Below, piece after piece: positions 29,780 to 32,770 of a DNA stretch of 64,000 nt. Below the pieces are notes generated by a model that saw only the letters and a list, made by a program, of their open reading frames with translations, searched no databases and was not told where the DNA came from. The first letter of the stretch is position 1. Every line of letters begins with the position of its first letter. The stretch is from a virus, in IMG/VR virus record IMGVR_UViG_3300044673_000097, positions 21,380-85,379 of that record; one strand, written 5' to 3'. The position numbers and the translations under genes were made by a program.

Positions 29780-29953
29780 CCTGCATCCAATCCAAGGCCG
29801 CGCATTGCAGCGACACCGCGCGGGAGTCAATCCGCCTGAGGCTCGCACTGCATCCCATAACCTTCCCACCGTGCATTGCAGCATCGACCCAGCGACCTGC
29901 GCAGCGGCGTCTCGTTCCTGCACCCCATGGCGCTCCCGCACACGCATTGCTGC
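29780..29953 (-). CRISPR. Degenerate mini-array 2 (3 repeats, 2 internal spacers)
   Basis: Minus-strand repeats GC(T/A)GCAATGC-N10/15-AT(G/T)GG(A/G)TGCAG at 29918-29953, 29848-29882 and 29781-29811; spacers of 35 and 36 nt. Confidence 0.6.
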
Positions 29954-30144
29954 GGGTGTCGTAGGACGCACGCGGTTCCAATGCGTTGCGAGATGGTCTG
30001 CGAGCGGTACTGATCCGCGACCCGTTGCCGGACCGCTTGGCTGTGGACCGCTCGCGGGTTGGCGAGCCAAACGCCTTTGGGCATTGCAGTATGCCCACGA
30101 TGCCCCGCCAGACGAACAGATTGTGCAGGGCTTCGTCATCGAAT
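29954..30144 (-). ncRNA. Candidate tracr/scaffold RNA for the Cas12f-like protein
   Basis: Non-coding; minus-strand CCCTGCACAATC (30119-30130) can pair with repeat 3' end GATTGCAGG(G); hairpin GGGCATACTGCAATGCCC (30079-30096). Confidence 0.35.
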
Positions 30145-30729
30145 TCACGCCGCAGGCTTGTGGAGCAATCCGTTGAGACGCTCGATCTCCGCCTTGAGTT
30201 CCCCGTTCTCCCTCTCGAGTTCCTTGACCCTCTCCTTGAGCCTTTCGACCTCCGATTGCTCCCGCGCTTCCTTGCGCACGGCCTTGACTTCCTGGCACGG
30301 CTTGCGCGCTTCGGGCGCAACGTCGCGTACGATCTGGCGGACCTTCGGCAATCCAGGCGAGCACCCTTCCTTGTCGATGTGGTGCTTGATTGCGGCGACC
30401 AGTTCCGCCTTGCGGGCGGGAGTCGATACCACAGCGGGATGAATCATCGCATGCGCCGCATCGGGGCCGACCAACTTCGCCACCTCGATTCCGTATTCGT
30501 CGATCTGCCTGCACACGTGGTTGTACTGGTGCAGACCGATCACGTTCGGAAACTCGCGCGTCAGGAATGCTGAGAACGTGGCGTGCTGCCCGAGCTTCCA
30601 CGTGCCCTCTTCCTCGATTGCCCGGAGCTGCACAAACACGTCAACGCCTGCGCTGTGCCACGTTGCCAGCAGCCCACGGACGCGATCGACAATCCCCTTG
30701 TACGCTCGCTCGTCGCTCTTCTTGCTCAT
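30145..30729 (-). CDS. Helical protein with C-terminal coiled coil, translationally coupled to cas12f-like gene
   Basis: ATGA overlap with the cas12f stop, AGGAGG RBS; L..I...G.W.....TF..FL motif; EVERLKERVKELERENGELKAEIERL heptads. Confidence 0.75.
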   Translation of the reverse strand: MSKKSDERAYKGIVDRVRGLLATWHSAGVDVFVQLRAIEEEGTWKLGQHATFSAFLTREFPNVIGLHQYNHVCRQIDEYGIEVAKLVGPDAAHAMIHPAVVSTPARKAELVAAIKHHIDKEGCSPGLPKVRQIVRDVAPEARKPCQEVKAVRKEAREQSEVERLKERVKELERENGELKAEIERLNGLLHKPAA

Positions 30730-32231
30730 TGCACGACCTCCTGTTGCGGCGCCGTGAGCGCCTTGGTAACCCGGCCCTTCGTCTTCGCCTTGACCTTCTC
30801 TGCCACCTTGCCCGTGACCCCAGCGTGCCCCGCCTTCGCGAGCGCGTTGACGCATGCAACGATGTCGCGGTGTGCCTGGTGCTCGCACTTCTGGCACTTG
30901 AACCGCTTGACCACTTCGGAGCGCGTGAACCGTCGCCCGTGGTATTCGATCACCTCGACCCGCTGCGTGGCATCGAACAGATTTCCGGGGTCGGCATACC
31001 CGCACGCTGGGCACGTCTGCGAATCATACGCGACGTTCTTGATCTCGACTCGAACGCCGCGCTGCTTGCCCTCCCGATCGACGGCTTGCGCGAGTTCGTA
31101 GAACGGGAAGCTGTGAATCATGCGCCGCACTTCCTCGTGCGCCTCTCCTCCGGTCTTGCGCTCGAATCCTTCGCGCGAGTCCGTCATGTCCGGCCACAGC
31201 AGCAGCCCGACATTGTGAGCAAGGCACCACGCGATTGCGCCCGCCGCAATCTGTCGGATGCGCGTAGTCACGAACCGGGACTCCGCGTCCTCGAGATTCG
31301 TCACCGGGCGCATTCGGCGTTTGACCCCGTGGCCCTTGGACCCGCTGCCCATCGTGTTGATGCACCGCTGGATTGATGCGCGACGGTGCGCGAATCGTTG
31401 CCTCGCGACCACGATGTCTTCGCCGGACACGTTGTGCTCGAAGCCGTCCGCTGTGACGATCTGGACGAACCTCGACACGCCGATGTGCGCAGCGGCCACG
31501 CCCGTGGAGGTCACTTCTGCGACAGGCTCGCCAGACCATGAGATGAGGGCGAACCACTTTCGGCGGTTCTCGTCGTAGGAGATTCCCACGCGCCCGAGTT
31601 TCACCTCGCCCGAGACGAGCTTGCGCCACATTGCCTCGCCGTTCTTTCCGCACGGCGCGACGATGACGCGCGTGGCCTTCTTGCCTGCGCCCAACAGCGG
31701 GACGGTGAGCACGGCACGCGACGGCGGCCCCTCGACTTCGCATGAACGCGAGCGGGCGTAGAATGCGGCGGACGCGTGCCACGACGGGAACGATGCCCGG
31801 TTCGCGAGCAGGTCTTTCAGGTGCTCACCCGTGAACCGGGAGGCAATGTTGTCCATCGTCTCGGCCGTCCAGTATTCGGTCACGTGGACGAAAGCATCTT
31901 CCGGCATCGGGCGCGATTGGCGCTTCGGCTTCTCCCGCTCGGATTGCTCACGAGCAAGCGCCGTCGCCATCTCGTCATTCCACATGCGCTGCAACACCGG
32001 GCCGATCTTCCCGGTGAAGGCGTACTTTGCGGAGTTCCTGTCGTCGGCGCGTCGCTTGAACGCGTCGAGCATCGCCACGGCTTCGGGATACAGCTCACGC
32101 ATGGCCCGATTGAGCGCGGGACCGAGCGTCATGCGCATGGCACGAAGGCGAGGACCAACGTCATCCCACGACGCAAGCTCGGGCTTGACGATTTCGACCT
32201 TCAGCGTTCCGGCTAGCGTCTTGGATTCCAA
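30726..32231 (-). CDS. cas12f: Cas12f/TnpB-family RNA-guided protein, predicted nuclease-dead
   Basis: Colinear similarity to AsCas12f1 as recalled (EIVKP..W..G..LR, SGE....D....KW..ISW, GHG.KR..P..L.D, SQTCPACG, FKCQKC); RuvC-I AAHIG, RuvC-II LWPDM, RuvC-III HRD; TTG start with GGAGGT RBS. Confidence 0.85.
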   Translation of the reverse strand: MESKTLAGTLKVEIVKPELASWDDVGPRLRAMRMTLGPALNRAMRELYPEAVAMLDAFKRRADDRNSAKYAFTGKIGPVLQRMWNDEMATALAREQSEREKPKRQSRPMPEDAFVHVTEYWTAETMDNIASRFTGEHLKDLLANRASFPSWHASAAFYARSRSCEVEGPPSRAVLTVPLLGAGKKATRVIVAPCGKNGEAMWRKLVSGEVKLGRVGISYDENRRKWFALISWSGEPVAEVTSTGVAAAHIGVSRFVQIVTADGFEHNVSGEDIVVARQRFAHRRASIQRCINTMGSGSKGHGVKRRMRPVTNLEDAESRFVTTRIRQIAAGAIAWCLAHNVGLLLWPDMTDSREGFERKTGGEAHEEVRRMIHSFPFYELAQAVDREGKQRGVRVEIKNVAYDSQTCPACGYADPGNLFDATQRVEVIEYHGRRFTRSEVVKRFKCQKCEHQAHRDIVACVNALAKAGHAGVTGKVAEKVKAKTKGRVTKALTAPQQEVVQ

Positions 32232-32237
32232 CTGTCA

Positions 32238-32486
32238 CCTCCAATGCTCACGCTTCGATCCTCGATCGCGAGGTCAAGGCCTGTCGTTTCCATTTCATTC
32301 TCCTGCCCTGCAATCGATGACGCTTCGATCCGCGATCGCGAGTCGAAGGGCGCGAACGTGCACGCCACGGCATATCCCCTGCAATCGATGGCGCAACGAT
32401 CCTCGATCGTCACCGTCGTGGAGACGGTTTGCGGCGCCGCGTTTCCAGTGCCTGCACCCGTTCACGCTCCAACCTTTTCGCAATCG
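32238..32486 (-). CRISPR. Mini CRISPR array 1 (3 clear plus 1 degenerate repeat, 3 spacers)
   Basis: 36-nt repeat CTCGCGATCGCGGATCGAAGCGTCATCGATTGCAGG (32307-32342) with variants at 32378-32413 and 32238-32272, degenerate copy about 32451-32486; spacers of 34, 35 and 37 nt. Confidence 0.8.
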
Positions 32487-32770
32487 TGGATCGAAACGCA
32501 ATCGTTGGCGAGGACGATGCCTCGCCTTTGCGCCTTGCAGCAGGCGCTCTCGAAAACATCCGACTGGGCATCCTCTCCCACACGCGCAAGGATGCGTTCG
32601 CATTCCGAACTGTCAACGTGCAGCGCTGTCGATTCAGCAGATTGTTCCACTTGACAATCCCCACACCCCTCAAACTCCTGCCGCTCCGGCACCCACACCC
32701 GGCCAGTGCCGCCGCATGGGCAAGGCGGCTTGTACCGGCCCAGCGCTTCGAGCTGTGCGCGGGAGGTCAT
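32462..32770 (-). CDS. Small Cys-rich hypothetical protein
   Basis: ATGA-coupled start; CPCGGTG...CGDC. Confidence 0.5.
   Translation of the reverse strand: MTSRAQLEALGRYKPPCPCGGTGRVWVPERQEFEGCGDCQVEQSAESTALHVDSSECERILARVGEDAQSDVFESACCKAQRRGIVLANDCVSIHDCEKVGA
32590..32631 (-). promoter_or_regulatory. Candidate promoter plus operator for the array/cas12f unit
   Basis: TTGACA-16-CATCCT on the minus strand; 32610-32631 matches immunity-region 49270-49291 at 18/22. Confidence 0.55.

Follow-up and report, generated by a model that had tools for sequence, protein, structure and literature searches.

RNA-guided type V effectors that have lost nuclease activity and act by binding are well established, Cas12k being one example. 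Here we describe a locus in a virus genome, IMG/VR record IMGVR_UViG_3300044673_000097, a linear contig of 85,379 b with an estimated completeness of 88%. The analysis covered bases 21380-85379 of the record (64,000 nucleotides (nt), referred to as the window; positions are those of the window unless a related locus is named). The locus encodes a Cas12f1-like protein of 501 amino acids (aa), the effector, and a 194-aa partner protein. This gene pair is flanked by two short repeat-spacer modules, module 1 upstream and module 2 downstream. We read the locus as a phage-borne derivative of type V-F CRISPR that does not cleave DNA and serves as an RNA-guided DNA-binding module (probability about 0.6). 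Most likely, it binds foreign DNA under RNA guidance and silences it.

Type V-F1/V-U3 Cas12f1 nucleases resemble the locus in best sequence match, in size (about 500 aa), in the zinc-ribbon TNB domain, in having a trans-activating CRISPR RNA (tracrRNA, or tracr) with an anti-repeat, and in the 36-nt repeats seen in relatives of the effector. The locus differs from them in its replaced RuvC-I Asp and RuvC-II Glu, in the additional conserved partner, in being phage-borne, and in its two mini-modules, each with a tracr of its own onto which the first repeat is predicted to fold. Another candidate is V-U24, described as having a noncanonical RuvC-I site and a helix-turn-helix (HTH) protein partner (Altae-Tran 2023, PMC10691335). 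A noncanonical RuvC-I in a CRISPR-linked Cas12 is common to V-U24 and the window family, whereas no HTH model matched the partner in our domain searches; the two are likened by the published description alone. Going by that description only, the window family is probably V-U24, which weakens the claim of the first-pass annotation that such a layout had not been described. Our full-text literature search returned no phage-borne dead Cas12f with this partner, though the supplements of Altae-Tran 2023 may hold the family. The sources searched gave it a one-line catalogue entry, with no experimental work and no account of its phage context, partner or tracr.

Cas12m (type V-M) proteins are likewise compact, CRISPR-linked without adaptation genes and located on mobile elements (PMC10442227, PMC11656645). 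Their clades carry the non-canonical triads HDD, NED and HEK, and Cas12m2 silences by binding without cutting double-stranded DNA (PMC10442227). They belong to a different lineage: no Cas12m chain was present among the 17 PDB matches of the effector at E-values up to 10, and no Cas12m or U1 model among its 13 PADLOC matches. The guide scaffold here is a tracr, whereas the main text of PMC10442227 makes no mention of a tracrRNA; nor do the sources cited describe a partner gene for Cas12m.

The dCas12f-sigma-E systems of Bacteroidota, nuclease-dead RNA-guided DNA binders with a linked partner (Hoffmann, Wiegand et al., Nature 2026, PMC13472631), share with the locus Cas12f descent, the linked partner and guide RNAs made of repeat and scaffold. 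As described there, these effectors are C-terminally truncated (9n9c, 365 aa) and chromosomal, their partners are sigma/HTH proteins, and no tracrRNA was found. In contrast, the effector analyzed here keeps RuvC-III and the C-terminus, a tracr is present, the element is a phage and no linked rpoE occurs among the neighbouring genes. The same paper mentions a distinct cluster of dCas12f from Chitinophagaceae, which lies near CRISPR arrays and may repress efflux genes. Finally, TldR proteins are derived from TnpB, nuclease-dead, RNA-guided and sometimes prophage-encoded, and they block RNA polymerase (bioRxiv 10.1101/2023.11.30.569447, PMC13622181). They are described as using one omega-like RNA (9-16-nt guide) at the 3' end of the gene, with no CRISPR array or tracr (PMC13622181), whereas the window effector descends from the Cas12f1 branch and has arrays and tracr on both sides of its gene.

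Effector and its relatives

The effector gene has the following features:

30726-32231, minus strand: Cas12f1-like effector, 501 aa; TTG start with GGAGGTG 5 nt upstream; RuvC triad His-Pro-Asp; zinc ribbon intact

The effector matched the Pfam Cas12f1-like TNB domain (E-value 5.6e-12, 46 bits, cut-off 26.3) and, over residues 9-417, the PADLOC Cas12f model (3.7e-34), with the PADLOC Cas12u3 model also reaching about 1e-34. Its best PDB matches were the AsCas12f structures 8j12, 7wju and 8dzj (about 5e-16; AsCas12f 4.6e-16), followed by other Cas12f entries. Matches to Cas12f1 nucleases, including SpCas12f1 9i8y, ranged from 5e-16 to 7e-14, while 9n9c, the 365-aa 'nuclease-deactivated Cas12f', was matched weakly (2.2e-5). 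Family searches thus place the protein with Cas12f, the nearest active relatives being of Cas12f1 type.

The alignment with these structures also shows which catalytic residues have changed. In RuvC-I, His249 (within AAHIGVS) aligns with the Asp of 8j12 (gidlgva), a column that holds Ala in 7wju and 8dzj, and in RuvC-II a Pro (LLWPDMT) aligns with the Glu of AsCas12f (iqmEdlt). The third RuvC residue, Asp456 (HRDIVACVN), is retained together with the four zinc-ribbon Cys and the C-terminus (residue numbers as read from the alignment). The Asp-Glu-Asp triad has therefore become His-Pro-Asp, and the RuvC triad of nuclease Cas12f is not intact. Both the Cas12f1 homology and the change of two of the three RuvC residues agree with the first-pass annotation, which had proposed a nuclease-dead Cas12f of 501 aa.

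We then asked how common the replacement is. A word-indexed search yielded 20 clusters of relatives (clusters are defined at 50% identity throughout). None of the 19 that were aligned (alignment A1, from which the 312-aa fragment P0018 was omitted) has the RuvC-I Asp, the residue in its place being Asn, His or Val; one residue comparison omitted proteins shorter than 400 aa. An exhaustive search of a 1.8-billion-protein library returned 680 representatives at E-values up to 0.001, of which 36 were at E-values up to 1e-30. Triads were counted and a FastTree phylogeny was built for 148 of 160 identifiers (P0001-P0160), proteins shorter than 380 aa being omitted. Among these best 148 representatives the triads included HED (49), NED (42), HPD (7) and DED (7); across the family the RuvC-III Asp is nearly invariant and the RuvC-II Glu is retained in most members.

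In the tree (462 columns, assumed root), the 140 proteins without the RuvC-I Asp form a single clade (support 0.914); the number is a lower bound, since it derives from the 150 best matches. The other eight tips are Cas12f1-like, with the RuvC-I Asp in seven and Gln in one. Within the large clade, the window's family is a group of 38 tips (support 1.0), and the His-Pro-Asp subclade that holds the window effector comprises five tips (support 0.999). Canonical Cas12f1-type sequences make up a minority outgroup among the 148 best relatives. The family is mostly metagenomic and phage-borne. In a search of 401 genomes from the phylum of one metagenome-assembled genome (MAG) that carries it, Deltaproteobacteria MAG G001, it was found in G001 alone.

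A side observation concerns the N-terminal coding region of the effector: a 243-nt contig of metagenome run X2 matches 32040-32071 over 32 nt with one difference and has different flanks. Its source may be a relative of this phage from the same soil.

Guide modules, scaffolds and spacer matches

The two modules, both on the minus strand, are listed in the direction of transcription:

32503-32550 (-): module 1 tracr scaffold, consisting of hairpin 1 (loop with UGCA), AAA, hairpin 2 and AAC (model R2, 49.9 bits, E-value 8.7e-11)
32481-32501 (-): module 1 anti-repeat, about 19 nt (duplex test with the repeats)
32451-32474 (-): degenerate first (half) repeat R0, 3' end GGGTGCAGG, joined to the tracr by a short loop (p 0.03-0.19, not significant alone)
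32410-32450 (-): guide g0, 41 nt, between R0 and Ra
32377-32409 (-): repeat Ra
32339-32376 (-): guide g1, 38 nt
32306-32338 (-): repeat Rb
32269-32305 (-): guide g2, 37 nt
32236-32268 (-): terminal degenerate repeat Rc, its 3' end being the effector Shine-Dalgarno sequence GGAGGTG
30057-30099 (-): module 2 tracr scaffold, hairpin 2 shortened (model R2, 30.6 bits, E-value 6.8e-6)
29956-30056 (-): module 2 linker; long hairpin and, at about 29979-29993, putative anti-repeat, from the minimum free energy (MFE) fold
29917-29955 (-): repeat r1 (r1-r2 score 10, p 0.001)
29883-29916 (-): spacer A, 34 nt
29847-29882 (-): repeat r2 (r2-r3 score 13, p 0.0006)
29812-29846 (-): spacer B, 35 nt
29780-29811 (-): repeat r3, 32 nt, with deletions

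After each scaffold come three to four repeats with a period of about 70 nt, giving five guides of 34-41 nt in total. Module 1 repeats are 33-35 nt long with spacings of 71 and 70, which shift the reading frame, so they are not protein repeats. Global alignment scores among Ra, Rb and Rc were 23, 22 and 14, whereas random pairs with the same spacing reached 22-23 in 0/5000 and 14 in 3/5000 cases. For module 2 (spacing about 70 nt) the two scores listed above and a third (3, p 0.027) also exceed the window background. The two short arrays of the first-pass annotation are thus confirmed. No strain variation in the arrays was seen in the metagenome DNA contigs, which are short and shallow. The 3' end of R0 resembles the short repeat CGTCAACGGGTGCAAG of L006, one of the related loci (numbered L001, L002 and so on) compared below.

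The scaffolds were identified independently of the window. Covariance model R2 was built from L006 and L007 only, and in both strands of the 64-kb window it has exactly two significant places, one on either side of the gene pair and both on its strand. The tracr-like gap noticed earlier is therefore a two-hairpin element that precedes each module. The model also matches L002 at 3519-3583 (E-value 3e-6) and L008 at 3448-3494 (2.7e-4). In alignment A3 of 12 scaffold copies (two from the window, eight from L006, two from L007) 91.6% of cells are paired and 6 of 13 pairs show changes on both sides, a value reached in 0/500 shuffles; those from L006 are paralogous to one another, which means that the counts do not represent independent events. 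Copy L7_b was omitted from the model alignments A4 and A5. Hairpin 1 of module 2 has two compensatory pairs relative to the consensus. Scans of the window with Rfam (gathering thresholds) and for tRNAs gave no matches.

The anti-repeat of module 1 forms duplexes of -23.6, -28.2 and -28.2 kcal/mol with the repeats (z -1.3, -3.0 and -3.9; 300 shuffles each), the strongest being with Rc (z -3.9), and when the single strand is folded its partner in cis is R0. Module 2 folds with an MFE of -84.7 kcal/mol (z -2.2), its candidate anti-repeat pairing in cis with r1. Among related loci, L002 has, after its scaffold, 18-20 nt perfectly complementary to the repeat (z about -7) and then a hairpin, and L008 has 12 such nt in that place (z about -3.7 to -4.0); in L007 and phage Rctr197k the duplex test did not exceed shuffles. 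Because an anti-repeat adjoins the scaffold in L002, L008 and module 1, the two-hairpin element is best read as a tracrRNA, a prediction that is firm for module 1 and made by homology for module 2. The features by which type V-F CRISPR is recognized, an array and a tracrRNA with anti-repeat, are both present, the anti-repeat duplex being significant for module 1 only. Kissing of the hairpin-1 loop with the repeat 3' end was considered and rejected: the L007 loop does not fit, and L002 and L008 have a proper anti-repeat downstream of the scaffold instead.

A 103-aa open reading frame (ORF) at 32462-32773(-), with CxC...CxxC motifs and no PHROG match, extends into the module 1 scaffold and anti-repeat. 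Its 3' part may either be coding or be merely an open frame in GC-rich DNA.

Arrays adjoin the homologues as well, with 36-nt repeats and a period of 71-73 nt. Repeat counts are 6-7 in L001, 9-10 in L002, 2 in L003, 7 in L004, 6 in L007 and 10-12 in L008; phage Rctr197k has four, annotated there as CRISPR. Effector, partner, tracr and array co-occur across very divergent viral loci, and the repeats are all different. L006 and L005, which have the same sequence and an effector 64% identical to that of the window, carry eight copies of the scaffold (about 60 nt in L006), distributed on either side of the gene pair and fused straight to a 15-nt repeat end and a guide. Repeat ends of 16 nt also occur there in series, the spacers between them measuring about 17-21 nt, beside, or in place of, regular arrays. 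Such single-guide-like units and series were mapped as follows:

L006, 4423-4650 and 6726-7556: features of this kind
L005: the same sequence
L008, 3628-3716: features of this kind

Guide architecture in the relatives thus forms a continuum, from regular arrays, through the tracr, folded-back first repeat and two to three further repeats of the window, to fused units. For sigma-linked dCas12f, a route has been proposed in which the array was minimized, half a repeat fused to the tracr and the unit duplicated (PMC10691335); the fused units of L006 and L005 parallel that description.

Next, we compared 29500-32800 with contigs of the four metagenome runs that contain the stretch. Most of the short pieces had 4-8 differences in about 36 nt, which is noise. 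Two contigs with flanks unlike the window stood out. The first, from run X2 and 1361 nt long with a depth of 9.4, agrees at 36/37 positions with 29881-29917, a range made up of spacer A plus one and two flanking nt. An 816-nt contig of run X3 matches 32272-32307, which comprises two G's of the repeat end and 34 of the 37 nt of g2, at 33/36 positions. Both matches end at most 3 nt from predicted spacer boundaries, and by our own estimate the spacer A match is expected about 1e-6 times by chance in 1.6e10 letters. When 65 spacer-like stretches taken from six loci were compared with every related locus, a single match emerged: spacer 1 of L001 (2437-2472) corresponds to L012 1501-1536 on the 11-kb contig C137 of MAG G001 (32/36 by eye, 27 contiguous, E-value 2.4e-6). 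This protospacer lies on the antisense strand of a 931-aa minor-tail-like gene, in the same MAG and on another contig. The guides have no match in their own 85-kb genome when up to 4 mismatches in 20 nt or 2 in 16 nt are allowed, which makes it unlikely that the phage regulates genes of its own through guides that fit perfectly or nearly so. Taken with the contig matches, the L001 match indicates that guides in the family address other DNA, in one case phage DNA.

Partner gene and phage setting

The partner gene follows the effector directly:

30145-30729, minus strand: partner protein, 194 aa; its start overlaps the effector stop (ATGA)

The partner has a helical N-domain and a C-terminal leucine-zipper-like coiled coil, and its PDB matches are designed coiled coils. 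By tblastn it adjoins the effector in six of the seven related loci with downstream DNA (L001, L002, L003, L005, L006 and L008; alignment A2), while in L007 none was found within 2.9 kb downstream. Two further loci carry candidates found by profile comparison: an overlapping 211-aa ORF in L004 (hhalign probability 96%, E-value 2.8e-9) and a 205-aa ORF directly upstream of the effector in phage Rctr197k (89%, 2.3e-6). The ATGA overlap is common to the window and L006. The coupling of the partner gene noted at first pass is upheld. In the Atlas, the N-domain lies near phage and plasmid clusters in which 10-22% of members have DUF3102 or Plasmid_parti_N (TM by query 0.62-0.67; no statistics). A DUF3102-like identity of the N-domain is a lead only. 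An IMG/VR scan based on the partner yielded a single locus, L024, which was dropped, since apart from a coiled-coil match it contained no homologue of either effector or partner.

The locus lies amid minus-strand genes, in the order initiator, DnaB-like helicase, RuvC-like resolvase, small ORFs, the locus, two small ORFs, small-terminase-like gene and large terminase:

40428-41444, minus strand: replication initiator
38301-39848, minus strand: DnaB-like helicase
37810-38304, minus strand: RuvC-like resolvase
27648-28127, minus strand: small-terminase-like gene
26390-27763, minus strand: large terminase

This agrees with the placement of the locus in a middle operon, between replication and terminase genes. 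Genes for a tyrosine integrase, a CI-like repressor and an Ant-like anti-repressor mark the record as that of a temperate phage; the prophage label given at first pass is corrected accordingly, an integrated state being conjectural. The absence of cas1, cas2, cas4 and transposase genes, noted earlier for the window, extends to the whole 85,379-b record, in which no Cas1, Cas2, Cas4 or Y1 transposase was found (controls positive). The effector is present as a single copy in the phage genome. In tblastx of related loci against this genome the DnaB-like gene near the L008 locus matched, the remainder being too noisy to support synteny. The stretch is contained in four rhizosphere metagenome runs from four studies, and two of these may be where it came from. 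Within the replication-initiator gene there are two runs of the 11-nt tandem repeat CGAGGGTCTCG, at 41048-41087 (3.6 copies) and 41232-41276 (4.1 copies), which look like the iterons of a phage origin.

A further element lies ahead of module 1:

32610-32630, minus strand: promoter/operator-like box, TTGACA plus the palindrome CAGCGCTG, with the module 1 tracr about 60 nt downstream

The 21-nt box (CAGCGCTG with TTGACAG) has a second copy at 49270-49290(-), with three mismatches and 0 copies expected by chance. This copy sits between the CI-like repressor gene (49332-49910, plus strand) and minus-strand genes leading to the Ant-like gene (48228-48971). Given its position in this divergent region, the CRISPR-like locus may share control with the immunity switch of the phage. 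We infer that the box at 32610-32630 acts as a promoter; a sigma-70 scan called none there.

Readings of the locus

Under the reading preferred here, expression, RNA loading, non-cleavage, silencing and any role of the partner are inferred to proceed as follows. A single minus-strand transcript, deduced from the layout, would run from the box at 32610-32630 through module 1, effector and partner to module 2. Each module would start with its own tracrRNA (two-hairpin scaffold and anti-repeat). By folding back on the tracr, the degenerate first repeat would make a natural single guide, and two to three more repeats would bring the number of guides to five. With its zinc ribbon, its WED/REC/RuvC framework and a His-Pro-Asp site, the effector would load these guides, form R-loops on DNA outside its own genome and stay bound, blocking transcription or replication like Cas12m and TldR. 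The partner, predicted to dimerize via its zipper, would act with the effector as stabilizer, bridge or output subunit. The multi-guide regulator proposed at first pass is borne out in its several guides in two modules and not in its regulatory role. Likewise, the putative targets in the host or in competing elements fit the lack of self matches and the two spacers that match DNA from the same habitat.

Several observations weigh against silencing of foreign DNA by a dead effector. All four runs containing the stretch are DNA runs and none is an RNA run. Module 2 is degenerate and weaker than module 1 (repeat scores 3-13), and its intermolecular anti-repeat duplex does not exceed shuffles (z -0.1 to -0.8). 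The g2 match is only moderately unlikely, being expected 0.004-0.04 times across the 3.3-kb stretch by our own estimate. Searches of phage isolates and plasmids by blastn with the locus and each module gave chance-level matches only, and IMG/VR yielded nothing when scanned for exact 24-nt portions of spacer A and g2. All four mismatches of the L001 protospacer fall in the repeat-proximal first 9 nt, which is where Cas12 enzymes have their seed. On their 5' side, the three candidate protospacers are preceded by G, G and C, and no clear protospacer adjacent motif is common to these flanks. For the partner, domain searches gave coiled-coil Pfam matches under threshold only, at the C-terminus. Finally, the retained RuvC-III Asp and the conserved His or Asn at RuvC-I in 140 clusters make an altered activity, such as RNA processing or nicking, conceivable.

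The alternative that survives best, though we regard it as rather unlikely, is recruitment in place of steric silencing. The effector would aim the partner, and the dimeric coiled-coil partner, with a possibly DNA-binding N-domain, would be the output, activating or repressing, tethering or bridging DNA, or acting on replication or partition, much as dCas12f serves sigma-E. The position of the partner beside the effector in 6/7 close loci and two distant clade members, the translational coupling by ATGA overlap in the window and L006, the DUF3102 and Plasmid_parti_N leads from the Atlas, and the described precedent of a partner-dependent dCas12f (PMC13472631) all argue for it. However, no partner domain scores above a curated cut-off, L007 lacks the gene over the 2.9 kb searched, the Atlas rows are leads without statistics, and the partner has no sigma-factor or polymerase-binding signature.

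Less probable still is an effector that remains an enzyme, its His/Asn-(Glu)-Asp site performing precursor CRISPR RNA processing, nicking or slow cleavage; the system would then be a weapon of the phage that cuts mobile genetic elements. The near invariance of the RuvC-III Asp, the Glu kept in most of the family and the conservation of His or Asn at RuvC-I, which suggests selection on the site, are in keeping with this. Yet nucleases of the RNase H fold are known to depend on the first Asp, and the window subclade of five tips has also lost the Glu, to Pro. Conserved substitutions have been treated as 'rearranged' sites that possibly keep activity (PMC10691335). On the other hand, Cas12m2 with a restored DED triad is reported not to have regained cleavage, its HDD site only binding the non-target strand (PMC10442227).

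We give very little credence to a decoy or hijack, in which repeats and tracr would mimic those of a host type V-F system, loading phage spacers into host Cas12f or soaking it up as an RNA anti-CRISPR, with the dead protein as a dominant negative. Phage mini-arrays and solitary repeat units with such roles are known (reviewed in PMC11656645), and the arrays here are very short. However, the repeats differ between the modules, each co-varying with its own anti-repeat and scaffold, and the four components travel together across divergent viral loci whose repeats differ. The possibility that the protein is an IS200/IS605 TnpB, whether ordinary or in decay, that uses one omega-RNA beside chance repeats, suggested by the source name 'IS605 OrfB family transposase' of relatives, the PHROG label 'transposase' and the NCBIfam guided_TnpB score (76 bits, under the cut-off of 100), is already contradicted by a single genome copy without Y1 TnpA in the record, repeats far above chance, spacers matching foreign DNA, homologue arrays of up to 12 repeats, guide RNA on both sides of the gene rather than solely at its 3' end, and replaced RuvC residues.

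Beyond the preferred reading of a non-cleaving, RNA-guided binding module, a more elaborate version is possible, albeit doubtful. The locus might be a phage-peculiar, RNA-programmed machine of two proteins, with dead Cas12f as the address and the dimeric coiled-coil partner as the output, bridging or occluding DNA or recruiting host factors. It would stand under its own immunity-type operator and shut down rival phages or host loci at the early-to-late switch, the terminal repeat over the effector ribosome-binding site providing dosage control by tracr pairing or processing.

Cas12m, Cas12k, TldR and dCas12f-sigma-E each revealed a new use of CRISPR-like targeting. The clade described here is large: at least 140 clusters have lost the first catalytic Asp while keeping CRISPR arrays, tracrRNA and one unnamed partner. 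A compact effector of about 500 aa with its own guide scaffold may be of practical interest for programmable repression. If the preferred reading is true, temperate phages would aim silencing at other DNA without risk to their own genome or that of the host.

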